A DNA stretch of 64,000 bases from Nitrosopumilus sp. (GTDB lineage Archaea; Thermoproteota; Nitrososphaeria; Nitrososphaerales; Nitrosopumilaceae). How positions within the stretch are numbered: the first letter of the stretch is position 1; each line of letters begins with the position of its first letter. The position numbers and the translations under genes are program-made. The notes under the pieces are model-generated. The model made no database searches, had not been told where the DNA came from, and saw only the letters and a program-made list of their open reading frames with translations. This document shows, one piece after another, positions 32,095 through 47,954 of this stretch. Where the stretch lies: NCBI GenBank assembly GCA_963667665.2, contig OY763927.2:320001-384000 (forward strand). The letters are read 5' to 3'.

Positions 32095-32622
32095 ATGAAA
32101 ACTACAAAACTTAGATGGGTAGATCTATTCATTATTGCAGCGATAATTCAGGGTGCAATAATTGCCATAATGGCTGTAGTCATTATAGCAATCCAAGTAA
32201 TTAATAGCGATATTAACATAATTCAATATCTTTCATTATCTTTTGGAGGATCTGGCAAATGGTTCTTTTTTGGAGTAATATTTCATCTCATCATAATAGT
32301 TGCAATAGCAGTTACTGCATTATTTTACAGTCATCTTGAAATTACTTTGAAGAAAAAATTCTCAAGAAAATCAAATGTGTTGGCTACGATTCACTTGATT
32401 GGAATGAATGTTGGAGGTGCAGGATCTATGATGATAATGACATATGCAGGTTTAGCAGGCACTGGATTGCTTACAGTTTTTACTGAAGGAAAACTAGGTC
32501 CAAAAGATCTTGCCATTCTAGATTCATTCATAGAACCAATTGGTGGATTTATTGCACTTTTAGCAATTGGTGTTATGTGTGGTGGTTTGGGTTTTGTGTT
32601 GGCATACAGAAATAATTCATAA
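32095..32622 (+). CDS. Hypothetical 4-TM membrane protein
   Basis: HLIGMNVGG motif; hydrophobic. Confidence 0.7.
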   Translation: MKTTKLRWVDLFIIAAIIQGAIIAIMAVVIIAIQVINSDINIIQYLSLSFGGSGKWFFFGVIFHLIIIVAIAVTALFYSHLEITLKKKFSRKSNVLATIHLIGMNVGGAGSMMIMTYAGLAGTGLLTVFTEGKLGPKDLAILDSFIEPIGGFIALLAIGVMCGGLGFVLAYRNNS

Positions 32623-32755
32623 AAATAGTGATAGAAAATTATGGGCCTAACTTATTGCAAAAGGTTGATTGGCAGTCGACTCTCCTGTATTTTACCTAAA
32701 AAAGCATACACAGGTGGATGCATTAGTTTTTTTACGAAAGAAAAAATGAAAAAAC

Positions 32756-33814
32756 GTGAAAAATAGTCTGGAATCATCTGAGATCTCATCATCTGAGTGG
32801 TTATCCCTAAATCAATTCCTCTACGAGATAAAGCAGATTGATTCATCATGCGTGTCTATCTATTATCCATATGGTAAGGGACAAGAAACAATATCTTTGC
32901 TACAGGAAACAAAGAGAAATGAATCATTTGAAAAAATAGAATCAAAAATTGAAATTAGAATTGCCGAACTTAAAAAAAATCCGGTCTCTGTAGGCAAGTT
33001 TACAAAAACTCTGTGCATTTTTGGATGGATAAAAAATGGTAAAGTAAACATTAAAGTGATTGGCACCTCAAAAAAACTTCCATATATCTACATAGCAAGC
33101 AAAAAACCATTCATCAAACCATTCAACGATATTTTGAAAACCAATTATGATGTTTTAGTTGTTACACTTGATCAAAAATCAGCAAAAATACAGAAATTTC
33201 ATGGTAGTCAAATAATCCAAGAAGCTAAACTTAGAATTCATCTACAAGGACGACATAAAAAAGGTGGGCAAAGTCAAGGTAGATTTCTAAGAGCAAGACA
33301 AACCAAAATCCATGTTTTCTTCAAGAAAGTAGCAAACAAAGTCAGAATGATGGATTCAAATTCTGAATTACTCTTGTTGGGTGGAATTGGACCTGCAAAA
33401 ACAGAATTTTACGATGAACTTGATTCAGAGTTAGTAAAAAAATGTCGATTTGTAGAAACCTTATCTTTTTCCACTCCAAAAAATGATGTTGGTAAGAAAA
33501 TAATTCATCATTTGTATCAGCATAGACGAAAATATGTTACAGAAATTATTGAAAAATATGAAAATCTAGTCAAAGAAGGGTTAACTGCAAAAAGAAATAA
33601 TATTATTTTCAAGGCATTAGAAATTGGAGCAGTAGATACACTAATTATCTCTGCAAACTATCACACTACTCCTCAATTCAAAAATATCATGAAAATGATG
33701 GAGATGGCAAAAAACACATCAGCTAAAATAGAGTTTGCAGTTTCTCCAAAAATTATTAAAAAACTAGAAATTAATGATTCAGTTTTAGCCATACTTCGAT
33801 ATAGGGTAAAATAA
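32756..33814 (+). CDS. aRF1/baeRF-like release-factor paralogue (eRF1 domains 2-3, GGQ motif)
   Basis: GRHKKGGQSQGRFLR, LLGGIGPAK, ALEIGAVDTL, AILRY; no NIKS. Confidence 0.85.
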   Translation: MKNSLESSEISSSEWLSLNQFLYEIKQIDSSCVSIYYPYGKGQETISLLQETKRNESFEKIESKIEIRIAELKKNPVSVGKFTKTLCIFGWIKNGKVNIKVIGTSKKLPYIYIASKKPFIKPFNDILKTNYDVLVVTLDQKSAKIQKFHGSQIIQEAKLRIHLQGRHKKGGQSQGRFLRARQTKIHVFFKKVANKVRMMDSNSELLLLGGIGPAKTEFYDELDSELVKKCRFVETLSFSTPKNDVGKKIIHHLYQHRRKYVTEIIEKYENLVKEGLTAKRNNIIFKALEIGAVDTLIISANYHTTPQFKNIMKMMEMAKNTSAKIEFAVSPKIIKKLEINDSVLAILRYRVK

Positions 33815-33910
33815 TCTCATCTAACCTGAATTACGTCTAAATGGCTCTATTTCATTCATTAATCACTAGTATGATTTCTACGTCTCTATTAAATACAAAT
33901 TCTACAATTT

Positions 33911-33979
33911 ATGATTATGACAATATTGTACATTCCTATAAGACCATCACGAAGAAATGATGACGAATATGAAGATTAA
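33911..33979 (+). CDS. Micro-protein, PIRPSRR/acidic-tail family copy 1
   Basis: MI(MTILYIPIRPSRRNDDEYED)*; TATTAAAT at ~33887; paralogue at 46718. Confidence 0.65.
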   Translation: MIMTILYIPIRPSRRNDDEYED

Positions 33980-34006
33980 TCTATTTTATTTTTAGATTTT
34001 TTATTC

Positions 34007-35776
34007 TTATCTTGATTCATCTACACAGAAAACAATTTCTGCTGAAGAACCTGCACTATCTGATACAAGGAAATTAAATGCATCTGCAATTCTTTGATTG
34101 TTTGGTTCTGAACCAGTAACTGTACCTGGAAATACTGTAAACATTCTAATTTTTGATTTTAGAACATCACTTAATTCTTGATTAACTGTAGTTGTAAATG
34201 GTCTTAGTGCTCCTCTGAAAACTTCTACCTGAGCTCTTTGTGTTCCTGAAACTTTTCTTCCAATTGGAAGGTCTGGACCAATTATCATGATTGCGCCTTT
34301 TGCATCTTTGTAAAGACGTGGATCTTTACCTCCACCTGGAACAAATTGTTCTAGTGCTCTCTGAGCTACAGTTGCTGGAGTTGAAATGAATTTTTCAACA
34401 AGTTCTTCCCATGCCGTTCTTGACAATTCAGTTAATTTTGATATTTCTGGTAATTTTCCTGTAACATGAACTACTGCTAGGATTTCACCGTGATTAGTTT
34501 TAGCAGTGTTTAGCCACTTTTCGACCTCTTCAGGATTTTTGATATCAAAAATATGGGTATGACATTTGCTACTAATGTGCTCTTGAAGTTCTTTTGGTGT
34601 AGATTCTGAAATGAAACATGCAGCTCTTCCTCCATTTTTCTCAATATGTTGTGCCAAAAATACTACTCTTTCTGCATCCACTTTATCAGTTGCATCAATG
34701 GTAAACACAACTACTTTGCCGCTAAAATCTGCTTGGTGAACTCCAGGTGTTGTAGTTCCAATATGTGGCCTTACAGGATAAAATACTCTATCTCCTGGAA
34801 CAACTTTTCCATTTAGAATTTTTGCCATTTCATCATCACACAAGTTGAGAACTGATTCTGAAACTTGTCCTTGTGATAGAAATTCTCGATTTGCTATCAT
34901 ATGTGATGTATTTTTTTGAATTTTTCCTGCAAGACTTTGAATTTGTTCTAATAACTTTGTAAATGTCTCAGTTACTTTGGCAACATCCTTTCCGTTTGCT
35001 AGTTTTTCAGCAACTTTTGCAATTCCCTCTGTATCTACTCCGTCTTTTAGTATACATTCTAACAATTCTTTACTTGCTTCTTCAACTTCAACTGGACTTA
35101 GATCTTCAAATCCAATGACTCTCATAAATTCTGAAGCTGCTTTTGGATAAACAGTCTTGTAAATTCGATCAGAATGAACTGGTCCTGGATTTGTCGCAAT
35201 AGATATGATTCCTTTGTCTGTTAATTCCCATGACATTGCCTCAGCTAGTCTGTTCTTTGCACCTTGAGATGCAGTGTATGGACTTCTAAATCTGTATGGT
35301 CTTTGTTCTAATGGTCTCTCTTCAGTAAAGAATGTTGAAATAGTAATTATCTTTCCTCCTTCTTTCATTACTTTTAGTGCTTGTACAGAGCCCCAAAATG
35401 TTCCCGTTAGGTGTATTGCAATAGTACTTTTGAATTCATCAAGTGGCGCATTTGCAAAACATGTAACAGGACCTGAAACCCCTGCATTGTTAATTATGTA
35501 ATCTATTGTAACGTTGTCATTTTTTAGTGAATCAAACATGTTATTCATTGCAGCTTCATCAGCTACATCAACTCCTGCAAAAATTGTAACTTTTGCTCCA
35601 CTGTTTACTTTGGATATGGCATCTTCTAGTTTTATTGCTGCTTCTTCTAACACTTCTTTTCTTCTTCCAAGGATAATTACACTTGCTCCATTTTCAACAA
35701 ATCTTGTAGCAATGGCTAAACCTATACCTGTCCCACTACCTGTAATTAGAGCAACTTTATCTTGAAATTTCAGCAT
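34007..35776 (-). CDS. Two-domain SDR oxidoreductase resembling malonyl-CoA reductase (Mcr) SDR modules
   Basis: Likely start ATG 35776 (MLKFQDKVALITGSGTGIG); NNAG, PYRFRSPYTASQGAK, PGPVHSDRI; second degenerate Rossmann domain. Confidence 0.85.
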   Translation of the reverse strand: MLKFQDKVALITGSGTGIGLAIATRFVENGASVIILGRRKEVLEEAAIKLEDAISKVNSGAKVTIFAGVDVADEAAMNNMFDSLKNDNVTIDYIINNAGVSGPVTCFANAPLDEFKSTIAIHLTGTFWGSVQALKVMKEGGKIITISTFFTEERPLEQRPYRFRSPYTASQGAKNRLAEAMSWELTDKGIISIATNPGPVHSDRIYKTVYPKAASEFMRVIGFEDLSPVEVEEASKELLECILKDGVDTEGIAKVAEKLANGKDVAKVTETFTKLLEQIQSLAGKIQKNTSHMIANREFLSQGQVSESVLNLCDDEMAKILNGKVVPGDRVFYPVRPHIGTTTPGVHQADFSGKVVVFTIDATDKVDAERVVFLAQHIEKNGGRAACFISESTPKELQEHISSKCHTHIFDIKNPEEVEKWLNTAKTNHGEILAVVHVTGKLPEISKLTELSRTAWEELVEKFISTPATVAQRALEQFVPGGGKDPRLYKDAKGAIMIIGPDLPIGRKVSGTQRAQVEVFRGALRPFTTTVNQELSDVLKSKIRMFTVFPGTVTGSEPNNQRIADAFNFLVSDSAGSSAEIVFCVDESR

Positions 35777-35875
35777 AGATGGACTGTCAAACCTTTTGTG
35801 ATATTTAATTGGATTGATCCCTGGAGAAAATATTTTCTTGATATCTTTATTTGTGGGTATGACTCTTGATTTTTT

Positions 35876-36112
35876 ATGCATGATGCAGAATTAGATACAT
35901 TTGTTTCTAAAACATGGCCTGAAAAATTTAATGATATGTTAAAGGAGATCGGAGTAGATTCAGAATCAAAAGAAATTGGAACTGATGATGTTGAAAAAGA
36001 TGATTACTATAGTAGATATTTTGCTCAAACACCTAGAATGATTACTAATCGAGGATGCCTTGATGTCAAGAATTCTAACATTGATGTAATACAAATTATT
36101 CAAAAGGGATAA
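35876..36112 (+). CDS. Hypothetical protein
   Basis: ORF with YYSRYF and ITNRGC; co-oriented with the next gene. Confidence 0.6.
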   Translation: MHDAELDTFVSKTWPEKFNDMLKEIGVDSESKEIGTDDVEKDDYYSRYFAQTPRMITNRGCLDVKNSNIDVIQIIQKG

Positions 36113-36114
36113 AG

Positions 36115-36492
36115 ATGCAAGATCCAAATCCAATCCCCTGGGGTGCACAAGACCGATTTCAAGCACATTTCATTGTAAGAAAGGATGCTGGAAACGCAGT
36201 TGGAGACTATCTTGCAAAAACAATACTAACAACTAAAGGGCATTTTGGTTCAAAAACTGTTGTTAAAGTTGAATGGAATGGTCCTGGTAGTTTGGCTTCA
36301 AAACTAAATGGTGATAACGAACTAAATGAAATGATTGCAAAGCAATCGATCAAAAATGCTACTATCTATGTGGAGCCTACTGAGGAAGCAATCAGAATTA
36401 GAAGTAAATGGGATAATCATATTGCCTTTGGTATTACCAAAGAACTTTATGAAATTTATAATAAAATAGCTGGTCACATTAAAGCAATCTAA
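36115..36492 (+). CDS. Conserved thaumarchaeal hypothetical protein
   Basis: PWGAQDRFQAHFIV, KGHFGSK; 125 aa. Confidence 0.7.
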   Translation: MQDPNPIPWGAQDRFQAHFIVRKDAGNAVGDYLAKTILTTKGHFGSKTVVKVEWNGPGSLASKLNGDNELNEMIAKQSIKNATIYVEPTEEAIRIRSKWDNHIAFGITKELYEIYNKIAGHIKAI

Positions 36493-37025
36493 GCTTTCCA
36501 CCAGTCTAAAGCAAGAAAATCTACTTTGTCTTTACCTTTTGGAATTGCTAAGATGAATTGTTTTCTTACTGTTGATGCAAGTCTTCCTGCAAGAACAATC
36601 CCTGTTGATGAAATTGATTCATTTCTATTGTAAACTTGAATCAGATATGGTGCATGATCAATTCCTGGCCCTTTTTCATAGACTGCAAAGTCACATCCGA
36701 ATTTTATTCCGGGATTGATGATGTATCCTTTGTCTCTAAAATTTTTGTAAACTAGATATTTTTTATCAAAATCATGATATTCTTGTTTACAAATCTCAAT
36801 CATTTGATCAATGTTTAATTTTTGTTTTGATTTGGTAATTGTAATTTTCTTATTTTCTAAAAGGTACAGCCCTTCGATAAGATCTAAAATTAATGGAACA
36901 TCTATTTCTTCAATTTTTGGTTTTGGAATGCCTATTGGTTTTCCATAGTATCCTTGACTGAAAAGTTTACGTGAATCCTCTATATTCCAAACAATGATTC
37001 TATTTTCTATTAACTCACTTTTCAT
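36489..37025 (-). CDS. endA: tRNA-intron endonuclease
   Basis: LDLIEGLYL, YLVYKNFRDKGY, GIKFGCDFAVY, PGIDHA, RLASTVRK. Confidence 0.95.
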   Translation of the reverse strand: MKSELIENRIIVWNIEDSRKLFSQGYYGKPIGIPKPKIEEIDVPLILDLIEGLYLLENKKITITKSKQKLNIDQMIEICKQEYHDFDKKYLVYKNFRDKGYIINPGIKFGCDFAVYEKGPGIDHAPYLIQVYNRNESISSTGIVLAGRLASTVRKQFILAIPKGKDKVDFLALDWWKA

Positions 37026-37124
37026 AATTCTTGGCTATCATTATGTGTATATGAATTCTTTAGTTGAATATAGTAATTTTGAAGAATTAAAAATAAAGTA
37101 AAAATGAAAAATTATGTGTTTTCT

Positions 37125-37790
37125 TTACAGGCTCAATGCTAGTAATATGAAAGAATCTGAGACTCGTTGGCATTTATCTGCCATCTCTTCTATTCCCTCT
37201 ATCACATCTTTCATCAACAACAATTCTTTTGTATTTGATATTTCGGATAGAACTTTGATTGTTGCTTGTCTATATTTGATATCAATTTCTCTCTCTATTG
37301 TTTGTGTTTCTTGAGCTAATTCAATTGCATTAGCAGTGTTTGTGTTAAGACTTCTAATGATTTCATTTAGCTTGTAAACTTCATCAACAACTAGTTCAAT
37401 TAACTTTGTGATGTCCTGGTTAAGTTTTGCACTTTTTAGTGTAGTTACTTTGACGTTTGAGAGTTTGAATGCAATACCTGTAATGTAACCTGCAATTTCA
37501 TCCATTGTGTATGCTGTATTGAGAAGATTTTCTCTATTCATGATTAATCCTCCTACGTCAGCTACTTCACGTGTAATCTTTCTTCTTAGATTTTCTACTT
37601 CTTCTTCAATAGTTGAAATTTGTTCTAGTACACCTTTGATTCCTGCCTTATCTTTTTTTAACATAAGTTCAGGTAGTGTTGCAAGTTCTCTGGCAGCGTT
37701 TAGAATTCGGTTAATTTCGTCTTGTAAAACTGCTATGGCCTTTCTTTTTGCTTGAACTTCAAGTTCTCCACTATACATAACAGAAATCAA
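37125..37790 (-). CDS. DUF47/PhoU-like phosphate transport regulator
   Basis: EEEVENLRR, MDEIA, EREID, EEMAD helical pattern. Confidence 0.85.
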   Translation of the reverse strand: MISVMYSGELEVQAKRKAIAVLQDEINRILNAARELATLPELMLKKDKAGIKGVLEQISTIEEEVENLRRKITREVADVGGLIMNRENLLNTAYTMDEIAGYITGIAFKLSNVKVTTLKSAKLNQDITKLIELVVDEVYKLNEIIRSLNTNTANAIELAQETQTIEREIDIKYRQATIKVLSEISNTKELLLMKDVIEGIEEMADKCQRVSDSFILLALSL

Positions 37791-37844
37791 AAATTCCTGA
37801 GGTAATTTAAATCATCTTTGATTATTGATGTTTTTTGAGCACGA

Positions 37845-39611
37845 TTATATCAAATTTTTATCATGTGCTACTTTTTTTTGACCTTTGTATAATGTAATTA
37901 CTTCTTCATTTGTTGATGCATCTTCAACTGCTTTCTCAATTCTGATCTTTCCTGTAAATTTTGGAAATCTTAAAGCAAGACCATACTCTTTTCTTATCTT
38001 GCCTCTTGCTGCTTTGTGAATTGGACTTAATGTAATTTCTGATGCTACAACTTCGATTACTAGTTCTGGTTCAAACCACACATCCGCTTCCATTTCACTA
38101 TCTATGCGAGGATTTTTCTTGATTGTAACTTTTGGATTTAAAATTTGATACAACTGGTCCAAACTTTCATCTGAAAAGCCTGTTCCTACTTTGCAAATGC
38201 TAGTGAATATGTCATCATCTTCATCATATGTTGCAAGTAGTAGTGTTCCATAGTTTCCAGTCCTTCTTCCTTTTCCAAAAAATCCTCCTATTACCACAAG
38301 ATCTAAACTATCCCCTAATTCATTTTGATACTCTCGTTTTAGCTTTAACCAATTACTTCCTCTTGAACCTGCTTGGTATGGTTTATCGAGCATCTTTAGC
38401 ATCAATCCCTCACTACCTGCATTAATGCTATTTTCAAAAAAGTCATTAACTTCATTTTCATTTTTGACTATTGTCATTGGGATATATTTTGCAAATTCAT
38501 CTTCTTTTACAATTTTTTCTAATTTTTCTCGCCTATCTTTGTAGTTTAACTCTAAGCAGCTTTTTCCATTACAGTATAAAATATCAAAAAAATTTATTGT
38601 AATTGGATACTGAGTAACTGCTTTTTCTATCTTGTATTTTCTTCTCCTATGCATTAATTCTTGAAATGGTAAAAATGCTCCCGTACTTTCTTTAATTGCA
38701 ACTGCCTCTGCTTCTAAAATTACATTCTCTGCTTGAATTGCTTTTGGAATTTTTTCTATGATATCCGGATAATAACTTGTAATGTTTTCTAAACTCCTAG
38801 AAAATAATACGACTTTGTCTCCTTCGATGTGAAGCTGAACTCTTTCTCCATCTAGCTTGTATTCAGCTGCAAAATCATTTCCCAATTTTTCAATTGCCTC
38901 TTCTTCACTTTTTACTCTGTCAGCGAGCATTGGTCTGATGGGATTAAACAAAATAATCTCAAATTTTTCAATTCCTTCGAGACCTTTTGTTGCTATAGTT
39001 TCAGCAACTTTTCCTAAATCACTTGAAACGTTATATGCGTGTTCCAAAATTTTTCTGTTATCTTTATTTCCAGAAAATGCTATTGCTAATGCATCCATTA
39101 CTGTGTTCTCTGCAATTCCTAATCTCAAAGAACCTAACAAAATCTTTAAAATGAAACTTGCCTCTAAAGGACTTGCATCATTAAGTAAACTCGAAATATA
39201 TTTTATCTTCATATCTTGTGATCGAGTTCCTTCTAACTTGGCAATTTTGAATAAAGTTTCATAAACTCTCTCGACTGTGATATCTTCTACAAGAAATGTT
39301 GTCTGTGTTTTTTGTTCTAGTATTACTGATGCCGCATGTCCAAGATCTCCTTCTTTTCTATATTCTTCTTCTATTTTCTTAACTGGAATTCCTGATGACT
39401 TTGAGATTGCTCTTATTGCAAGTTTTTCAGCAACACCTAACTCAATTCCTTCAAAATCTGGCCTTAGTTTTCCTTGTAATAGATACACAATCTTCGAAAT
39501 TACATCATGAGGTGTTTTTTCAAATAATTCTACTAGAAACTGTGTTAACTCTAATCTTTTTCTAGTTGATTCCATTTGGTTAAAAGAATCAGCTAAAACA
39601 GAAAACTCCAT
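37845..39611 (-). CDS. lig: ATP-dependent DNA ligase
   Basis: EYKLDGERVQ, EGLMLK, WLKLK, LRFP. Confidence 0.97.
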   Translation of the reverse strand: MEFSVLADSFNQMESTRKRLELTQFLVELFEKTPHDVISKIVYLLQGKLRPDFEGIELGVAEKLAIRAISKSSGIPVKKIEEEYRKEGDLGHAASVILEQKTQTTFLVEDITVERVYETLFKIAKLEGTRSQDMKIKYISSLLNDASPLEASFILKILLGSLRLGIAENTVMDALAIAFSGNKDNRKILEHAYNVSSDLGKVAETIATKGLEGIEKFEIILFNPIRPMLADRVKSEEEAIEKLGNDFAAEYKLDGERVQLHIEGDKVVLFSRSLENITSYYPDIIEKIPKAIQAENVILEAEAVAIKESTGAFLPFQELMHRRRKYKIEKAVTQYPITINFFDILYCNGKSCLELNYKDRREKLEKIVKEDEFAKYIPMTIVKNENEVNDFFENSINAGSEGLMLKMLDKPYQAGSRGSNWLKLKREYQNELGDSLDLVVIGGFFGKGRRTGNYGTLLLATYDEDDDIFTSICKVGTGFSDESLDQLYQILNPKVTIKKNPRIDSEMEADVWFEPELVIEVVASEITLSPIHKAARGKIRKEYGLALRFPKFTGKIRIEKAVEDASTNEEVITLYKGQKKVAHDKNLI

Positions 39612-39648
39612 TCTAATCCTCTACGTAATCCTGAATAAAAGTTTGAAA

Positions 39649-40062
39649 CTAGATGTATCTGAAAATTGTTGGTTTGTCTGATTCTGGTTGTTTAGAGACT
39701 AGTGCAAAGTTGTATAGTGGATATTCTTTTTTGTATTGTTTCATGAAACTCCAAGCAACATCATGTGTTTTGAATTCAGTTCTAATGCCGTCAATTTGAC
39801 TCTTATTTCCAAACACATCAAAAATTACCACTGAATATTGTTTTGGGCGATTATGTGGTCTTGCTTTAACTAACCAAAATAATGCAAAAACAAAAACTGA
39901 GCCTAAAATTACATACTCCCCAGCCATTTTGAAAAATGTTAAAATGATTCCTGGTATGATTTTACCAAATAAAACAACCATGAAATCTGAAAATGTAACT
40001 AATGCTAATACTGTAACCAGATAGGTCTTATAATCAAAAACTTTTTGAAAATAATTATCCAT
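39649..40062 (-). CDS. Conserved hypothetical membrane protein
   Basis: Two TMs, VAWSFMKQY, IFRY C-terminus. Confidence 0.7.
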   Translation of the reverse strand: MDNYFQKVFDYKTYLVTVLALVTFSDFMVVLFGKIIPGIILTFFKMAGEYVILGSVFVFALFWLVKARPHNRPKQYSVVIFDVFGNKSQIDGIRTEFKTHDVAWSFMKQYKKEYPLYNFALVSKQPESDKPTIFRYI

Positions 40063-40125
40063 CTATTTTTGAGAGGTCTTTTTTGATTTAACTATTTCTT
40101 AAAATTTTGATGACAAACTAAACTG

Positions 40126-41262
40126 TTAATCTGGATCTTCGTATTTCTCTTTCTTTTCGCCACGTGTGGTGTATCCATCCATTGGCTTCATCTTGCTTTC
40201 AAGAATACTCATTCTATCTTTGTAACCTTCAGCATATTCTAATTCTGATGGAACAAGAGTTGCTGGATGAATAAATCCTTGACTTCTAATTGACATTGCT
40301 TTCTTTGTTGCAATTTCTCTTATGTAATCCCAGTCTGGAGTTGAGAATCCATCAAATGGACCAGTAAACTTTCCATTATGCATACTAAACACTAGTGCCT
40401 CAACAATTGGAATACAGAAATTGATCGTTGCTGGGGAATTTAGTTTTACAGGCATTAGTGGCATGTTATGACTGCCTCTTGTGTTTCCTGCCACATAATG
40501 TGGATTATTAAATACACTTCCAACCTCTTCTGTAGCTGGAAAATTCTTTTGTGTTCTAACTAGACATATTGGATCATCTTTTCCAACATATGTTCCTGCA
40601 ATGTTATGTAGTCTATCTGTTGATGCTGCAAGAATTGGCTCTCCATCTTTAGTATTTACTGAATCAACAACATATCTTCCTGGATACATTAATGCAGCTT
40701 CAATAGTTGGTTTGTCTTGCCACAATTCAAGTTCAGCAATTGTGCCTTGTTCTACATCCATTATGTTTATCTTTACTCCACTAGCAAGTGATTTGTTTAC
40801 AATCAAACCTGTATTACTTAATGCATCTACGAACATTCTGTAAATTGGATAGTTGAATGCTCCCGGTTCTGTTTTGTCTGCTGCAAAAACTGTGAATGCT
40901 TCATTTGGTCTTTCTTCAAATTCTAATTCTGCAACGCCTGGACCCATGCCTTTGATATTTCCTGAAAATGAATCTTTTAGCAAATCTTGTCCTGCACCAT
41001 ACAGTCCTTCCTCTTTAGCAACTTCTGTTCCTGCCATGAATGCATCCCAAGCTAGTTTGTGAATTTGTTCGTTTTCCACTCCATGTGTGTGAGACATTAC
41101 AATGTGAACGTCATCCCCACAATATCCTATGTAATGATCAATTAGTAGATCTGCTGAATTTTTTACTGTATTTCTTACTGCTTCAATTAAAGCATCACTT
41201 GGTTTTGTATGTCCGCCAACTCCGCCGACATCTGCTTTGATAACTGAAACTGTAATTTTCAT
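40126..41262 (-). CDS. fbp: Fructose-1,6-bisphosphate aldolase/phosphatase
   Basis: KADVGGVGGH, YGAGQDLL, DKTEPGAFN, YVGKDDP, RGSH. Confidence 0.96.
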   Translation of the reverse strand: MKITVSVIKADVGGVGGHTKPSDALIEAVRNTVKNSADLLIDHYIGYCGDDVHIVMSHTHGVENEQIHKLAWDAFMAGTEVAKEEGLYGAGQDLLKDSFSGNIKGMGPGVAELEFEERPNEAFTVFAADKTEPGAFNYPIYRMFVDALSNTGLIVNKSLASGVKINIMDVEQGTIAELELWQDKPTIEAALMYPGRYVVDSVNTKDGEPILAASTDRLHNIAGTYVGKDDPICLVRTQKNFPATEEVGSVFNNPHYVAGNTRGSHNMPLMPVKLNSPATINFCIPIVEALVFSMHNGKFTGPFDGFSTPDWDYIREIATKKAMSIRSQGFIHPATLVPSELEYAEGYKDRMSILESKMKPMDGYTTRGEKKEKYEDPD

Positions 41263-41392
41263 ATTTTCTCTTTTTACCTCTTTGATTTATGTGCTTTTGA
41301 TAAAGTATTAAGATCTAAAATAAATTGAAAAAAACTATACTTTTTTTCAAAAATTCATAACGCTAATAAATGACCTCTGAGAGGCAGTCCAT

Positions 41393-42691
41393 ATGGCAAA
41401 CAAACCCCACTTGAACATGATTGTCACAGGCCACATCGATAATGGTAAATCAACAACTATGGGACATTTCTTGATGGATCTAGGCGTTGTAGATGAAAGA
41501 ACAATTGCAGCACATGCAGTTGAATCTGAAAAGACCGGAAAAGGTGATACTTTCAAGTATGCATGGGTTATGGATAACATCAAAGATGAAAGAGAAAGAG
41601 GTATCACTATTGATCTTGCTTTCCAAAAATTTGAATCTGCAAAATACTTCTTTACATTAATTGACGCACCAGGACATAGGGATTTTATTAAAAATATGAT
41701 TACAGGCGCTTCTGAAGCAGATGCCGCCATTTTAGTACTTTCAGCAAAAGAAGGTGAAACAGACACTGCAATTGCAGCAGGTGGACAAGCAAGAGAACAT
41801 GCATTCTTACTAAAAACACTCGGTGTAAGCCAACTAATTGTTGCAATCAATAAAATGGATGCAGTTGACTATAAAGAGGACGCATTCAAAGCAGCCAAAG
41901 AAAAAGGTGAAAAATTGATAAAATCTGTAGGTTACAAATTAGAAAATGTAGCCGTTATTCCAGTTTCTGGATGGAAAGGAGACAATTTAGTTAAAAAAAC
42001 TGAGAATATGCCATGGTACTCTGGAAAGACACTCCTTGAAGCATTTGATGACTTTACAATACCAGATAAACCAACTGGTAAACCACTACGTGTCCCAATC
42101 CAAGATGTTTACACAATTACTGGTGTAGGTACAGTACCTGTCGGTAGAGTTGAAACTGGAACTATGAAAGCAGGAGAGAAAATAATTGTAATGCCTTCTG
42201 GTGCCTTGGGTGAAATCAAATCTATTGAAACTCACCATACTGAAATGCCATCTGCTGAAGCAGGTGATAACATTGGTTTCAATCTTAGAGGTATTGAGAA
42301 GAAAGACATCAAGAGAGGGGATGTACTTGGAACTCCTGATAAACCACCAATGGTTGCAAAAGAATTCAAAGCACAAATTATAGTTATTCACCATCCAACA
42401 GCAATTGCTCCTGGTTATACTCCAGTAATGCATGCACATACTACACAAGTTGCAGCAACTGTTACTGAATTTCTTCAAAAGATTAATCCAGCAACTGGAG
42501 CAGTTGAGGAAGAAAATCCAAAGTTCTTAAAAGTTGGTGATTCTGCAATTGTAAAAATTAGACCTGTACGACCAACTTGTATCGAAACTTTCCAAGACTT
42601 CCCTGAGATGGGTAGATTTGCACTCAGAGATATGGGTGCAACAATCGCAGCAGGAATAGTTAAAGAAATTACCGAAGAGTACAAACCATAG
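41393..42691 (+). CDS. tuf: Translation elongation factor EF-1alpha
   Basis: GHIDNGKST, RERGITID, DAPGHRDF, NKMD, GRFALRDMG. Confidence 0.99.
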   Translation: MANKPHLNMIVTGHIDNGKSTTMGHFLMDLGVVDERTIAAHAVESEKTGKGDTFKYAWVMDNIKDERERGITIDLAFQKFESAKYFFTLIDAPGHRDFIKNMITGASEADAAILVLSAKEGETDTAIAAGGQAREHAFLLKTLGVSQLIVAINKMDAVDYKEDAFKAAKEKGEKLIKSVGYKLENVAVIPVSGWKGDNLVKKTENMPWYSGKTLLEAFDDFTIPDKPTGKPLRVPIQDVYTITGVGTVPVGRVETGTMKAGEKIIVMPSGALGEIKSIETHHTEMPSAEAGDNIGFNLRGIEKKDIKRGDVLGTPDKPPMVAKEFKAQIIVIHHPTAIAPGYTPVMHAHTTQVAATVTEFLQKINPATGAVEEENPKFLKVGDSAIVKIRPVRPTCIETFQDFPEMGRFALRDMGATIAAGIVKEITEEYKP

Positions 42692-42700
42692 GCAATTTTC

Positions 42701-43009
42701 ATGACACAAACTGCCCGTGTAAAACTTACTTCCGTTGATTTAAAAAAATTAGATGGTGTTTGTGGCGAAATTATGGGAATTGGTAAAAAAACCGGTGTCA
42801 AAATAAAAGGTCCTACCCCACTTCCTGTCAAAAGATTACACATTGCTACTAGAAAATCTCCATGTGGTAGTGGTACTGAAACCTATGAAAAATGGGAAAT
42901 GAGAATGCATAGAAGAATAATTAACATTAACGCTGATGATAAAGCTATAAGACAACTAATGAGGCTTAAAATTCCTGATGATGTCTACATTGAATTGTCT
43001 TTGACATAA
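42701..43009 (+). CDS. rpsJ: 30S ribosomal protein uS10
   Basis: GPTPLP, RKSPCGSG, WEMRMHRR. Confidence 0.97.
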   Translation: MTQTARVKLTSVDLKKLDGVCGEIMGIGKKTGVKIKGPTPLPVKRLHIATRKSPCGSGTETYEKWEMRMHRRIININADDKAIRQLMRLKIPDDVYIELSLT

Positions 43010-43047
43010 TTTGGTATCCTTAAATTACAGAAATTTTGATGATAAAT

Positions 43048-43257
43048 ATGGTTGACGAAAACATAGATTCTATTGAAGAAACCCCTGTAGAGGAGACTCC
43101 TGCAGAGACATTTGATGTAATTTACTCTTGTCTTAGATGTGCAACTAATGTCTCTAATGAAGAATTATCTCGCTTACCTGAAATCAAATGCATCTGTGGA
43201 TTTAGAGTATTTACCAAAGTAAGACCTCCTGTAGTAAAAACAATAAAAGCAATTTAA
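43048..43257 (+). CDS. rpoP: RNA polymerase subunit Rpo12 (RpoP/Rbp10)
   Basis: YSCLRC..IKCICGFRVFTKVRP. Confidence 0.85.
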   Translation: MVDENIDSIEETPVEETPAETFDVIYSCLRCATNVSNEELSRLPEIKCICGFRVFTKVRPPVVKTIKAI

Positions 43258-43455
43258 CTATCTGTCTTTTTTATAACTGTGTTCTCTTTGTAAATGAGTT
43301 CTCATATCTTCCATGTTTGAAAAATATTTGTTACATTCTTTACAATCATATTGTAAATCTTTCCCATGAAAAATCTGTTTATGATTCATTAACTCTTCTT
43401 CTTTTGAAAATTTTTTGTCACAACTATCGCATTTAATTTTATTAAAAAATTTCAC
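43258..43455 (-). CDS. Double C2H2 zinc-finger protein
   Basis: CDSC..F...L..H...H; CKEC..F..M..H...H. Confidence 0.9.
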   Translation of the reverse strand: MKFFNKIKCDSCDKKFSKEEELMNHKQIFHGKDLQYDCKECNKYFSNMEDMRTHLQREHSYKKDR

Positions 43456-43457
43456 TT

Positions 43458-43868
43458 TTATCCAAACTCTGCTTTCTTTTCATCCCAACAAGTCCTACAG
43501 AGATGACCCTCAATCTTCCAATTTCCTTTTGCATTATATCTGAATAGTCCCATCTTTCCTCCACATAATGCACAAAAATTTTTTTTCTTAGTATGGGTTT
43601 CTTCTTTTTTGTCAAAACATTCTTTGCATAACAAACCTTCCATATCCCATTGCCATCTCGGTTCCCACAAATCTGTAATCTTTTTAGTTGTTTTACATAC
43701 TATACATGGCTGTCTTACTGTGCCTTCATAGTATTCCTTTGATTTATCAAAATGACAATCCCCACAAAGTCTACCTTGAATGTTCCATTCTTTTTTTGGT
43801 TTGTGTTTGTGAGTTAACTCCTTGTTACAAACAGCACAAAATGAAGGCTTTTTACTAAATAATCCCAT
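43458..43868 (-). CDS. Cys-rich protein with three CxxC...W..G.LCxxC repeats
   Basis: Three treble-clef-like repeats. Confidence 0.8.
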   Translation of the reverse strand: MGLFSKKPSFCAVCNKELTHKHKPKKEWNIQGRLCGDCHFDKSKEYYEGTVRQPCIVCKTTKKITDLWEPRWQWDMEGLLCKECFDKKEETHTKKKNFCALCGGKMGLFRYNAKGNWKIEGHLCRTCWDEKKAEFG

Positions 43869-43925
43869 AATCTCTATGAGATTTCAAATAATTTAATCTA
43901 TTAAATGTAAATAAAAAAGAAAGGA

Positions 43926-44198
43926 TTAGAGTCTTAGTAACTCTGTTCCTCGTCTGGTTGAAATGTAGTGTCCTCCTAATTTAGGAAGTATTGTTCTGGG
44001 CATCTCTGTAAGATCAATCATGGATGTACCCTTAGCACTTGCAATTTTCAAACTCCCAAATTCGCTAAGTTTTGCTTCTTGAGCTTGTTTGAATTCCTTA
44101 CCTGCCCAATTCATAGATTTTACTGATTCTATGATAGTTTTGGTACCTTTCTCTACACTTCTGACAACTATTGTATCCACAAAGTCTATTCCTGACAT
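43926..44198 (-). CDS. Conserved thaumarchaeal hypothetical protein
   Basis: 90-aa ORF with a T-rich terminator-like tract downstream. Confidence 0.7.
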   Translation of the reverse strand: MSGIDFVDTIVVRSVEKGTKTIIESVKSMNWAGKEFKQAQEAKLSEFGSLKIASAKGTSMIDLTEMPRTILPKLGGHYISTRRGTELLRL

Positions 44199-44327
44199 TA
44201 CACTTCATACACAGAAAAAGTAGATATGGTCTAGTTAGCTGAGATGATAATCTTTTAGCTCAATATACAATTTCATGACCCAAGAAAACTTGCGTTAAGC
44301 AGTGAAAATAAAAATAACAAGAATCTC

Positions 44328-44450
44328 TTATTTGTTTAAGATTTTTTCAAGAGCCTGGCTTGCATTGAGCATACCGTTTCTCTTTGCAAATTCTTCGATC
44401 ATTTTGAATTGTTTTTCAGTAAAACATACTGGCATTGAACGTCTTTCCAT
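44328..44450 (-). CDS. Small ribbon-helix-helix-like protein (40 aa)
   Basis: MERRSMPVCFTEKQFKMIEEFAKRNGMLNASQALEKILNK*. Confidence 0.6.
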   Translation of the reverse strand: MERRSMPVCFTEKQFKMIEEFAKRNGMLNASQALEKILNK

Positions 44451-44547
44451 GAATATGATCTGTATAATTAACTAATATCTTTTGCTCTCAGAATCGGTCT
44501 CTTTTGTATAATCCCCTTTGTAAAATCATAAACTAGTCTGAGACTTA

Positions 44548-45339
44548 CTAATTGCTCAAATTAAAATATCTTATAATAAAAAAAATAATAGTACCTACAA
44601 TAACTCCAATTGTTATTAATTTTAAAATACGTTCTTTCTTTCTGATGATATGATGATCTCCGTTATCTCTTTTGAGCAATTTGTATTGTCTAGATGTTTT
44701 TATCAATGCATAGGTAACTCCTGCAGTAATTGTAGCAATAATTACTGTCTCAATAGAAATTGAATTTGTTTGGATAACAGAACCTGCAAAAACAGGTAGA
44801 ATGCCCCACGAAAACACTGTTGATATATTATTGTGAAATTTACCTCCAAACAGTTCTAGACTATATGCAAATAGAAAAAAACCTTCAACAATACCTATTG
44901 GAAAAAGCCAAGGAGAATCTAAAAATGCAAAATAAATTCCAACATAAAATGCAATACTTACAGCAAATATTGCTATAATCCCAATCTTCTTTTTTGGCAG
45001 ACTTCCCCAAGGTTTTGTTTTTCCTCCAACTGCATCAAGCAGGTGAGCTCCTACTCCTAGTGCTAAAATGTATATCACACAAATTGCAACTACTCGCTCT
45101 AATTGTAGAGGTCCTGAAATTGCTCCTAATGCGGCAAAGCAAGTAACAATACTAGTGTATGGTAAAAATAAAATTCCTATACTAATTCGAAATTTTTTAG
45201 AGCCAAATTTTGGAACAAACCATTCTGATGTTCTATCCCCTTGCAATAATCTTGTTTGGACTTTGTTGCTTATATGATCACGGAATAGACAACTGATATA
45301 ATTGATAAAATGACTGATTGGCTTGTGAACAAATATCAA
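44548..45339 (-). CDS. Integral membrane protein (UbiA-like); true start probably downstream
   Basis: LFLPYT, AHLLDA, GGKFHN, WGILPV; multiple TMs. Confidence 0.7.
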   Translation of the reverse strand: MIFVHKPISHFINYISCLFRDHISNKVQTRLLQGDRTSEWFVPKFGSKKFRISIGILFLPYTSIVTCFAALGAISGPLQLERVVAICVIYILALGVGAHLLDAVGGKTKPWGSLPKKKIGIIAIFAVSIAFYVGIYFAFLDSPWLFPIGIVEGFFLFAYSLELFGGKFHNNISTVFSWGILPVFAGSVIQTNSISIETVIIATITAGVTYALIKTSRQYKLLKRDNGDHHIIRKKERILKLITIGVIVGTIIFFIIRYFNLSN

Positions 45340-45729
45340 AAATTTATCAAAAAAGGAGTCATTGAATCACTTGACAAGGTTCCTTTTCACAATAAGGCCC
45401 CAATCAAACGATTATCTATGTTGAACAAAACTTTGATTCCTCAATCAGATACCCATATTGCAGTTCACTTTGTAGATGCTTCAATAGTTCTTCCCAAATA
45501 TAGTAAATTACACAAACATGATCATGATGAAATTAATTTGATACTCTCTGAAGATTCCAGCTTAACATATGAGATTCAATTTGAAGATGAATCCTATCAA
45601 GTAACATCACCTTCAACCATATTCATTCCAAAGGGAACACGACATAGTGCACAGGCAATTTCAGGTAAGGGACTTTTTGTATGTATAATTTTATCAAATA
45701 ATGTAAATTCTTCTTCTCAAAACAATTGA
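45310..45729 (+). CDS. Cupin-fold protein
   Basis: HKHDHDEIN and IFIPKGTRH. Confidence 0.8.
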   Translation: MTDWLVNKYQKFIKKGVIESLDKVPFHNKAPIKRLSMLNKTLIPQSDTHIAVHFVDASIVLPKYSKLHKHDHDEINLILSEDSSLTYEIQFEDESYQVTSPSTIFIPKGTRHSAQAISGKGLFVCIILSNNVNSSSQNN

Positions 45730-45762
45730 AACCCTAAAAAGCAAATATCTAATAATTCTAAT

Positions 45763-46017
45763 ATGAAAATAACTGAAATAGAAATTGATGATAGCCAAAC
45801 AGGCTATTGTTGGGTTCAAATATATACTGGGAATAGAAAAAAAGCAATTTTATTAAAACATCAAATTTTATCTGATCAAGCAATTCGGGAAAGACTTGAA
45901 AAAGAAATTATACAAAGCCAAAACATATCTACCAATTCCTCGACACCGATGGAAGTTACATTCCAAAGTTTTCTTACCACAAAACTCAAATTAATTCATG
46001 AAGGAGAAAACGAATGA
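45763..46017 (+). CDS. Hypothetical protein
   Basis: 84-aa ORF; stop overlaps the next start. Confidence 0.55.
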   Translation: MKITEIEIDDSQTGYCWVQIYTGNRKKAILLKHQILSDQAIRERLEKEIIQSQNISTNSSTPMEVTFQSFLTTKLKLIHEGENE

Positions 46018-46625
46018 CAAAGAAACGTCAGATCTTAGTTATTGGTAATAATACAAATGGCTGTACACCAAAACATGAAAAAATTGCCTACGAAGTCGGA
46101 GAAAAAATTGCAAAATCTGATTCTGTTTTAATAACTGGTGGATTGGGAGGTGTGATGAAAGCTGCATCACATGGAGCTCATGATGCAAATGGTTTGAGTA
46201 TAGGAATAATTCCTCAAGAGGATGCTACATTGGCTAATCAATTCTGTGACATTGTAATTCCAACTGGAATGGGACTTGCTCGTGATTTTTTAAATGCATT
46301 AAGTGCTGATGGAATAATAATTGTCGGTGGTGGATCTGGTACTTTGTCAGAAGTATGTGCTGCATACATGTACAAAAAACCAATGGTTGCAATCCGAAAC
46401 ATTGGTGGTTCTGTTGAACAATACATTGATGGTTTTCTTGATCACAGAAAAAATATCAAAATCATTGGAGTTGATACTCCTGAAGATGCAGTACAAACAA
46501 TTTTAGAATTAATTTCTAAATCATTCGACAAAGACACAGAATCATCTGATGCTGAAATCCTTGATGATTTTAATAAAATTAAAAGTGGTGAGGTTTCAAG
46601 AATGGCTCAAAAGAATTCTGATTAA
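46014..46625 (+). CDS. TIGR00725/LOG family Rossmann protein
   Basis: TGGLGGVM, TGMGLARD, GGGSGTLSE. Confidence 0.9.
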   Translation: MTKKRQILVIGNNTNGCTPKHEKIAYEVGEKIAKSDSVLITGGLGGVMKAASHGAHDANGLSIGIIPQEDATLANQFCDIVIPTGMGLARDFLNALSADGIIIVGGGSGTLSEVCAAYMYKKPMVAIRNIGGSVEQYIDGFLDHRKNIKIIGVDTPEDAVQTILELISKSFDKDTESSDAEILDDFNKIKSGEVSRMAQKNSD

Positions 46626-46717
46626 TATTATATTTTGTGGTGAATTATTCCATTTTGGATCTAGAAATGTCCCCAAAATTCCCTATTCTTTATGGATTAA
46701 TTTATCGTAATGAAACT

Positions 46718-46789
46718 ATGATTGGAAGTAAGATGAGATTTTTTGTACCTATTAGACCAAGCAGAAGATCATCTGATGAAGACGAATAA
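46718..46789 (+). CDS. Micro-protein, PIRPSRR/acidic-tail family copy 2
   Basis: MIGSK(MRFFVPIRPSRRSSDEDE)*; paralogue at 33911 with synonymous codon differences. Confidence 0.65.
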   Translation: MIGSKMRFFVPIRPSRRSSDEDE

Positions 46790-46814
46790 GTTGAAAATTC
46801 TCTAATTTCCCTAA

Positions 46815-47954
46815 TTATTGCATAGAGACTAGTAATGGATCTGGTCTGTAAAATTCACCATGTTCTTCAGCCAGTTTGTTTAATTCATCAACAATTTTTT
46901 TGATACCTATTTCTTTTGCTGTTTCAAACAATGGTTTTTTGAGTCCTAATCCTAATTGTGCTGCTTTTTCAATCTCATCTATGTCACTTGCTCCGTTTGA
47001 AACTAACCATGCTGCATTGTTTAGAATGTTGGCAACAATTTGAATTGGATCACATTTTGCTGCTAATTCTTCTGAAAGTGCAACTCTTTCATATTTGTCA
47101 TCTGCATATTTGTAATATCCTTCTCCAGATTTTTGTCCAAGTTTTTTTTCATCAAACATTTTTTCAACTAGAGGATGAGGATTGATTACTTTTTTGTCTC
47201 GTAAATGCATCTCTACTGTAGCTTTGTGAATTACATCCATTCCTGTAAAATCTGCCAACTCAAATATGCCCATTGGGAATCCTAATTTGAATTTGAATGC
47301 TGAATCAATCTCTTCTAGTGTTACACCTGTTCTATCTTTTAGATAACATGCTTCATGAACCATTGGTATAAACAATCTATTGATTATGAACCCTGGAACA
47401 TCTTTTCTACATATTACTGCAATTTTGTTAACTGATTTTACATACTCTTTTGTTAAATCAATTATTTCTTGTGATGTTTTCTCTCCAGGAATTATTTCTA
47501 CTAGTTTCATTAATTGTGGTGGATTGAAAAAATGAATTCCAATAAATTTTTCAGGACGTGATGTGGTATTTGCTATTTCGGTGATTGGTAATGTACTTGT
47601 ATTTGATGCAAAAACTACTTCTGGTGCTGCTGCCTTGTCTAATTCAGCATAAACTTTTTTCTTTAAATCCATAATTTCTGGAACTACTTCTATGACTAGT
47701 TCTGCATCTTTTACTGCTTCATTCAAATCTACAACGGGTGTAATTCTTGAAAAAATTGCATCGCCTTCTTCTTTTGAAATTTTTTCTTTTGAAACTAGTT
47801 TATCTATACTCCATTTTACTTTCTCCATCGCTTTATCCAAAAACCCTTGTTCAATATCACGTAACACTACATTGTATCCTGCAGTTGCTGAAACTTGAGC
47901 AATTCCGTGTCCCATAACTCCAGAACCTAAAACTGTGATGTTTTTTACTGCCAT
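46815..47954 (-). CDS. 3-hydroxyacyl-CoA dehydrogenase (probable 3-hydroxybutyryl-CoA dehydrogenase of the 3HP/4HB cycle)
   Basis: GSGVMGHGIAQ, SNTSTL, GIHFFNPP, PGFIINR, PMG. Confidence 0.93.
   Translation of the reverse strand: MAVKNITVLGSGVMGHGIAQVSATAGYNVVLRDIEQGFLDKAMEKVKWSIDKLVSKEKISKEEGDAIFSRITPVVDLNEAVKDAELVIEVVPEIMDLKKKVYAELDKAAAPEVVFASNTSTLPITEIANTTSRPEKFIGIHFFNPPQLMKLVEIIPGEKTSQEIIDLTKEYVKSVNKIAVICRKDVPGFIINRLFIPMVHEACYLKDRTGVTLEEIDSAFKFKLGFPMGIFELADFTGMDVIHKATVEMHLRDKKVINPHPLVEKMFDEKKLGQKSGEGYYKYADDKYERVALSEELAAKCDPIQIVANILNNAAWLVSNGASDIDEIEKAAQLGLGLKKPLFETAKEIGIKKIVDELNKLAEEHGEFYRPDPLLVSMQ

Follow-up and report, generated by a model that had tools for sequence, protein, structure and literature searches.

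Two micro-ORFs in the window, which is the whole stretch of 64,000 nucleotides of Nitrosopumilus sp. DNA that was analyzed, belong to a clade-restricted family of predicted peptides. The family is present as multiple paralogues, and sequence comparison indicates that its peptides, 18-28 residues long, are under purifying selection along their whole length. The family appears to be undescribed. On balance, we favor the reading that it is a real micro-protein acting in trans. The ammonia-oxidizing archaea of this taxonomic family are among the most abundant microbes of the ocean and, to our knowledge, their small proteomes are almost unexplored. Peptides of 20-25 residues are below the standard cut-off of gene callers, yet these are kept in most genomes of the clade under purifying selection. 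The family also illustrates how conserved coding sequence is overlooked by gene calling.

The original prediction described two copies of a peptide with a PIRPSRR core and an acidic tail. Both ORFs were confirmed in the sequence, with the start codons, stop codons, and peptides given in Table 1. The core codons are also as quoted there, CCT ATA AGA CCA TCA CGA AGA in copy 1 and CCT ATT AGA CCA AGC AGA AGA in copy 2, including the TCA/AGC swap at the serine. The start that was given for copy 1, position 33911, stood only in part. There is an in-frame ATG at this position, two codons 5' of ATG 33917, from which the peptide would read MIMTIL..., but it is an extra codon specific to this genome, and the orthologues begin at the MT position. 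Upstream of copy 2, an in-frame ATG at 46718 gives a 23-residue form that begins MIGSKMRFF... The genome (1.89 Mb in two contigs, 34% G+C) gives 3.78 million residues when all six frames are translated, and the PIRPSRR motif occurs among them three times. Only 0.0026 occurrences are expected from residue frequencies, so this recurrence is beyond chance. The third copy lies outside the window and has a GTG start. All three copies are ORFs of 18-25 codons with a short hydrophobic N-terminus, the PIRPSRR core, an acidic tail, and a stop codon. The genus carries three orthologous groups, types A, B, and C, with one to three paralogues per genome. Copy 1 is type A, with an HMM E-value of 2.9e-10 in its own genome, copy 2 is type C, and type B is found outside the window.

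Table 1. Coordinates of the micro-ORFs and of associated features (window positions unless a contig is named).
Feature	Location	Strand	Details
Divergent eRF1-domain paralogue	32756-33814	+	352 aa
Conserved upstream element, type A	33867..33896	+	AGTATGATTTCTACGTCTCTGTTAAATAC-like block ending in TATA-like box TTAAATAC (33889-33896)
Micro-ORF type A (copy 1)	33917..33979	+	ATG 33917; 20 codons plus TAA (33977-33979); peptide MTILYIPIRPSRRNDDEYED; orthologues in 9 other same-genus loci
T-rich spacer	33980..34006	+	T5 at 33989-33993, T6 at 33997-34002; common to the 3' end of the converging SDR; possible oligo-T terminator of archaeal type
AT-rich TATA-like stretch, type C	46688..46705	+	CTTTATGGATTAATTTAT; kept in two orthologous loci; putative promoter
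Micro-ORF type C (copy 2)	46733..46789	+	ATG 46733; 18 codons plus TAA (46787-46789); peptide MRFFVPIRPSRRSSDEDE; orthologues in two genomes of the genus
Third PIRPSRR copy	C1:938405-938479	-	GTG start; peptide MTVIYVPIRPSRRDPDADELEDAED

The cross-genome motif search that had been proposed as a check was positive. Searches with a DNA pattern and with profiles both found the micro-protein conserved in many genomes. Its members conform to M-[TS]-x-I-Y-[VI]-P-[IVT]-R-P-x-[RK]-[RKS], followed by an acidic tail. A back-translated DNA pattern gave 28 matches in 18 of 41 genomes, compared to 7 matches for a reversed-pattern control. Of the 24 further genomes of this genus, 15 had a match. At 23 of the 28 places, the match proved to be a tiny ORF of the kind described above. 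Two of the remaining matches do not encode the motif, and three are in one GC-rich genome and lack the tail. A profile built from 33 distinct members had matches at E ≤ 1 in 79 of the 121 genomes searched from this taxonomic family, many of them at 1e-7 to 1e-15. A wider profile of 44 members was run against 301 genomes of the phylum and matched 37 of the 43 other genomes of the taxonomic family at E ≤ 0.01. Outside this family, it matched one of 257 phylum genomes, at an E-value of 0.004, which is the chance level. Within the family, three genera gave no profile match in the genomes sampled (0 of 7, 0 of 6, and 0 of 6). The micro-protein family is confined to one archaeal family, which carries the thaumarchaeosortase and PEFG-CTERM markers of Thaumarchaeota.

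Some of the matches departed from this picture. Two genomes of another genus of the family (G198 and G213) gave five and six profile matches compared to one to three in this genus, and the micro-protein family seems to be expanded there. Three HMM matches fell inside open frames of 142-298 codons. Fused or longer forms were rejected for these, since the genomes are GC-rich with few stop codons, and the peptide is terminal with its own start codon. An alignment-based search of viral contigs gave four pattern matches, none of which was confirmed by tblastn.

In the alignment of the 44-member profile, columns M1, P7, R9, and P10 are invariant and R12 is nearly so. Variants of the core include PIRPHKR, PIRPGRR, PVRPSRR, PTRPNRK, and PIRPNRS. 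The conserved block is made up of the N-terminal 13 residues, and the acidic tails vary in sequence and in length (6-14 residues), usually with one hydrophobic residue. Most members have two basic residues ahead of the acidic stretch, and in some R-S or K-S takes the place of R-R.

Evidence that the family is coding comes from the start codon, the codon usage, and the substitution pattern. An ATG, GTG, or TTG is found before the first proline in all 71 distinct peptides, at a distance of six codons in 66 of them and five codons in the other 5. Among 60 distinct DNA versions of the 13 N-terminal codons, the conserved arginines are written with CGN as well as AGR codons and the serines with AGY as well as TCN. 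Within the core, entropy averages 0.55 bits at the first codon position, 0.18 at the second, and 1.19 at the third, and the three-base periodicity sets in with the start codon. When pN/pS was computed pairwise for residues 2-19, it was 0.33 in the ORF frame, compared to 1.17 and 1.53 in the two alternative frames of that strand and 0.48, 2.03, and 0.90 in the reverse-strand frames. Synonymous sites are close to saturation, with a pS of 0.57-0.73. The genomes compared are relatives rather than independent samples. Most of the sets used for these codon statistics were chosen with a peptide regular expression, which inflates amino-acid conservation and not synonymous diversity. For this reason, pN/pS was recounted on 20 distinct same-genus loci located through the sortase gene. 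In this set, which lessens the bias although the ORF itself was still found by a P-I-R-P codon pattern, the overall pN/pS was 0.18, with values of 0.25 for the N-terminus, 0.11 for the core, and 0.21 for the tail. The last value indicates that the acidic tail is selected too, and therefore that it is made and used. The proposal that selection acts on the peptide and not on the DNA was borne out by these in-frame values of 0.18-0.33 and by the mixed arginine and serine codon classes.

The ten codons 5' of the start are highly variable, show no periodicity, and contain in-frame stops in 22 of 51 loci, including this genome. A 36-residue membrane form of type B, starting from an ATG in the upstream box, was ruled out because of these stops and the lack of codon periodicity.

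Database searches returned little. Pfam and NCBIfam gave no family at E ≤ 10 for four members of 20-25 aa, the PDB gave no sequence at E ≤ 10 with the 33-member profile, and the 9,060 bases of this genome's three loci gave no Rfam match at E ≤ 1. Eight sequences were looked up for exact identity among ~15 billion proteins. Two of them, both type-B forms, were present as metagenome gene calls without a name, one on 6 contigs and the other on 8; the window copies were absent from this set. A 2025 ocean-metagenome survey lists many Thaumarchaeota small-protein clusters (PMC12856327), and its supplementary sequence tables may include this family. No description of the motif was found in a literature search that covered part of this survey, and a search on thaumarchaeosortase, small proteins, Nitrosopumilus, and TSS gave nothing specific to the family.

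Leaderless archaeal genes have transcripts whose first base belongs to the start codon, with the center of the TATA box ~26 nt upstream. The TATA-like box of the type-A element is centered ~25 nt and ends ~21 nt before ATG 33917. This upstream block is kept in an alignment of seven type-A loci, while the sequence farther upstream is not, and the box and its spacing recur in three further loci. Type B has a TTTTGCAACCTTGGAATGTATCTT-like block and a TGTATCTT-like box that ends ~21 nt before the start codon; the block is kept across many genera, and the 21-nt spacer is free to vary. For type C, the spacing of the AT-rich stretch suits ATG 46718 better than ATG 46733. A TATA-like element had been claimed for both window copies, which is clear for copy 1 and less so for copy 2. 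Leaderless translation had been named as compatible with these elements, and the promoter spacing fits, with boxes ending ~21 nt before the start, as far as can be inferred from sequence. The three paralogues have a common peptide but no common flanking DNA. This arrangement suggests that each micro-ORF is a leaderless mini-gene with its own promoter. No further occurrence of the type-A element or of the full type-B element was found in the genome, which leaves a shared regulon unsupported.

Downstream, a run of at least five Ts was found within 40 nt of the stop codon in 30 of 84 loci compared to 20% of random windows, only a modest enrichment. None of the RNA contigs listed for window positions 32500-47500, which came from two metatranscriptome runs and two sediment runs, spans 33917-33979 or covers 46733-46789, although such contigs can reveal neither transcript starts and ends nor absence. 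The one nearest to copy 1 (record 9 of X2) starts at 33945.

The genomic contexts of the paralogues differ. The neighbors predicted for copy 1 are present, a 352-aa eRF1-domain GGQ protein upstream and a 624-aa SDR converging from downstream. Type A converges on the SDR gene in nine of 10 loci. The predicted association with a release factor did not extend beyond this genome, the only one of the 10 type-A loci with the eRF1-domain GGQ paralogue upstream. Type C lies between a SLOG/TIGR00725 gene and a 3-hydroxyacyl-CoA dehydrogenase gene in two of three loci, this genome included. Convergent genes follow types A and C, which leaves both without a downstream cistron on their own strand. The eRF1-domain paralogue itself scored 75 bits against an aRF1 cut-off of 235 and also weakly matched ribosome-hibernation-factor and VLRF1-type release-factor models. 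It is therefore a divergent release-factor-like protein.

At type-B loci, a C2H2 zinc-finger ORF, a DsbA-like thioredoxin, a 159-aa membrane protein, and the micro-ORF follow one another on the same strand. Across many genera, 24 of 30 loci have the micro-ORF after the 159-aa protein. In 21 of the 22 loci from this genus, the thaumarchaeosortase gene (TIGR04297, E 1e-188) follows on the same strand after a gap of ~165 nt. The gap widens to 1.3-5.5 kb in other genera, where the sortase is again downstream on that strand. The sortase gene apparently has its own conserved TATA-like element. The sortase was found in all 54 sampled genomes of the taxonomic family, and the 159-aa protein occurs in three genera with no micro-ORF behind it. 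One streamlined genus (L083) has the micro-ORF behind the DsbA-like gene, with no 159-aa protein detected. Neither the sortase nor the 159-aa neighbor matches the phyletic pattern of the micro-protein. The best candidate pathway for paralogue B is the envelope thiol-oxidoreductase cluster formed by the DsbA-like protein and the 159-aa CxC protein, which precedes this paralogue in almost every genus.

The 159-aa protein (L027:1618-2097, minus strand, genome C1) is a multi-pass membrane protein with a CxC in a GACSCG motif. It always comes after a DsbA-like thioredoxin, for which it may serve as the partner in the membrane. It gave no Pfam family at E ≤ 0.1 and no NCBIfam family. Its Atlas neighbors are unnamed thaumarchaeal clusters, and the metal-binding families HMA and YHS, at a weak 0.77, are leads only. 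In two other genera (L043, L048-L052, and L058), a Cys-rich ORF of ~45 residues (CxxC ... CC), possibly a zinc ribbon, replaces the micro-ORF before the sortase.

In the reading that we favor, each copy would be an independently transcribed mini-gene with its own promoter and probably a leaderless mRNA. Its product would be a cytoplasmic micro-protein of 18-28 residues in three parts: a beta-branched and aromatic N-terminus of 5-6 residues (M-T-x-I-Y-V, with T or S at position 2), an invariant Pro/Arg core (P-x-R-P-x-R/K-R), and an acidic tail of 6-14 residues. The peptide may work in trans as a short linear-motif ligand, with the N-terminal strand and the PxRPxR core docking onto a partner protein. 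The acidic tail, which is specific to each paralogue, could modulate or mask a basic surface or could give the paralogues their specificity. We infer the action in trans and the binding of a partner from the tripartite build, the selection on all three parts, and the lack of a same-strand downstream gene for types A and C. Characterized small proteins of archaea and bacteria (~20-60 residues), such as those of Methanosarcina that act on nitrogen-assimilation proteins, bind and regulate larger proteins. The micro-proteins resemble these in size class, in having a stand-alone gene, in lacking an enzymatic domain, in being limited to a clade, and presumably in binding a partner. Unlike them, they have no sequence similarity to described families and are found as several paralogues per genome, each with its own promoter. 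The family is a defined target for archaeal small-protein biology, as the peptides can be synthesized, the motif is sharp and can be mutated, and the orthologue sets are clear. The identity of the partner could reveal a regulatory layer specific to the clade and help to explain the DsbA-like/membrane-protein cluster by the thaumarchaeosortase.

Several other explanations were weighed against a micro-protein acting in trans. It is exceedingly improbable that the loci are not genes at all, and that a conserved DNA or RNA element or chance ORFs happen to translate alike. The ORFs are indeed below gene-caller size, and the large protein set contained only the two unnamed calls, but the peptide is kept at near-saturated synonymous sites, both classes of arginine and serine codons are in use, the start codon is fixed in position, Rfam gave no match, and the paralogues share the peptide and not the flanking DNA. 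A cis-acting leader or arrest peptide, with the ribosome stalling at the Pro/Arg core to control a linked gene, is very unlikely. Known peptides of this kind are SecM, TnaC, the Erm leaders, and the fungal arginine attenuator peptide. They have a regulated downstream cistron, and their critical residues are C-terminal, near the peptidyl-transferase center at the stall. The micro-proteins are alike in their 18-28 residues, which would fit wholly in the exit tunnel at termination, and in a conserved motif that is rich in Pro and Arg. In addition, type B is close to the sortase on the same strand in this genus, and copy 1 adjoins the eRF1-domain paralogue. They are unlike arrest peptides in that the conserved block is N-terminal, the residues by the stop codon vary in sequence and number, the tail is selected, and types A and C lack a downstream cistron. 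These points also speak against the stalling peptide of the original prediction. The linkage is also loose, as the sortase appears to have a TATA-like element of its own and is 1.3-5.5 kb away from type B in other genera, and the release-factor paralogue adjoins a single type-A locus. A related idea by analogy, which we regard as a long shot, is that the peptide modulates translation in trans, with the core binding the ribosome at the exit tunnel or factor-binding site, or binding an eRF1-like factor, and the acidic tail serving as a built-in neutralizer or release switch. If this were true, protein synthesis or hibernation in slow-growing ammonia oxidizers would be adjusted by one to six paralogues under different promoters, and the family would be an endogenous archaeal counterpart of proline-rich ribosome-targeting peptides.

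Proline-rich antimicrobial peptides of insects and mammals, of the oncocin and apidaecin types, bind the ribosome and Hsp70, and they have a strong positive charge and repeated PRP or PP motifs. The micro-protein could likewise be the pro-peptide of a cationic Pro/Arg effector, with the first 13 residues active and the acidic tail as a neutralizing pro-region, although we find this very doubtful. Its Tyr-hydrophobic-Pro-x-Arg-Pro-x-Arg-Arg core is reminiscent of the PRP-type cores found in proline-rich peptides of insects and of the rule for Hsp70 binding, in which basic residues flank a hydrophobic core. In most members, the dibasic pair comes before the acidic stretch, as in a precursor spacer. 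However, the net charges of the three genomic copies are -2, 0, and -5, so the copies are not cationic. There is also no signal peptide, no protease or exporter is linked in the three contexts, which are housekeeping ones, each copy has a single P-x-R-P unit rather than repeats, and some members have R-S or K-S in place of R-R. The alternative that deserves more weight, while still unlikely, is that the micro-protein is an accessory subunit of the type-B envelope machinery (the DsbA-like protein, the 159-aa CxC protein, and the thaumarchaeosortase), with types A and C as spare or differently regulated copies. This would fit the place of type B after the 159-aa protein in many genera, the DsbA-like gene just before, and the sortase 0.17-5.5 kb downstream on the same strand. 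It would also fit the hydrophobic stretch and Arg cluster, which loosely recall the end of a C-terminal sorting signal. PEFG-CTERM (TIGR04296), the presumed target of thaumarchaeosortase (TIGR04297), is found at the C-terminal end of secreted proteins and combines a PEFG signature, a membrane-spanning helix of ~20 residues, and, at the very tip, a basic cluster. The micro-protein has a similar order of hydrophobic stretch and Arg-rich cluster, and one paralogue adjoins the sortase gene in this genus, but it has no PEFG, 5-6 hydrophobic residues instead of ~20, and neither a protein body nor a signal peptide. Its basic cluster is followed by an acidic tail, and it did not match the TIGR04296 model. 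The micro-protein was therefore rejected as a sortase substrate; true PEFG-CTERM proteins exist, and the micro-proteins match no NCBIfam model. The hydrophobic stretch is also too short to cross a membrane. Single-pass membrane micro-proteins of the AcrZ/KdpF type have a hydrophobic helix of at least 17 residues, whereas only residues 3-8 are hydrophobic here, and the upstream in-frame extension lacks periodicity and is broken by the stops in 22 of 51 loci. The accessory role is further opposed by genera in which the 159-aa protein and the sortase occur with no micro-ORF and by the L083 genus, which keeps the micro-ORF with no 159-aa protein detected.

The genome also holds several features that touch on the sortase. 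Six PEFG-CTERM candidates have VVPEFG, a helix, and basic residues, and TIGR04296 was confirmed on two proteins, with E-values of 1e-12 and 2e-7. Confirmed or candidate loci on C1 include 1636525-1637898 and 1204058-1204879 (L121 and L122). The PEFG-CTERM proteins of this genome are likely the substrates of the thaumarchaeosortase. A second, partial copy of the sortase gene with in-frame stops is found at bases 3-504 of the 6.9-kb contig C2 and may represent a pseudogene, strain variation, or a leftover of the assembly. On C1, at least five proteins that look secreted (at 122298, 495647, and 1322685 on the plus strand, and 1530283 and 1211985 on the minus strand) share a C-terminal domain of ~70 residues with a hydrophobic anchor and a basic tip (...IADYERENxxFKEIV...LNLGMYxGIPAxVIxGIRKKF). 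The NLGMY codons of this domain resemble the conserved box upstream of type-B micro-ORFs, which may be chance or a trace of common origin. Finally, a near-identical repeat of more than 300 bases is present on C1 at ~897,860-898,200 (plus strand) and 516,880-517,210 (minus strand), with an internal direct repeat, TAGTTCTGTCCAAGTTTAA... It begins an ORF that reads MIVYTVPIRP... and is unrelated to the micro-protein family.
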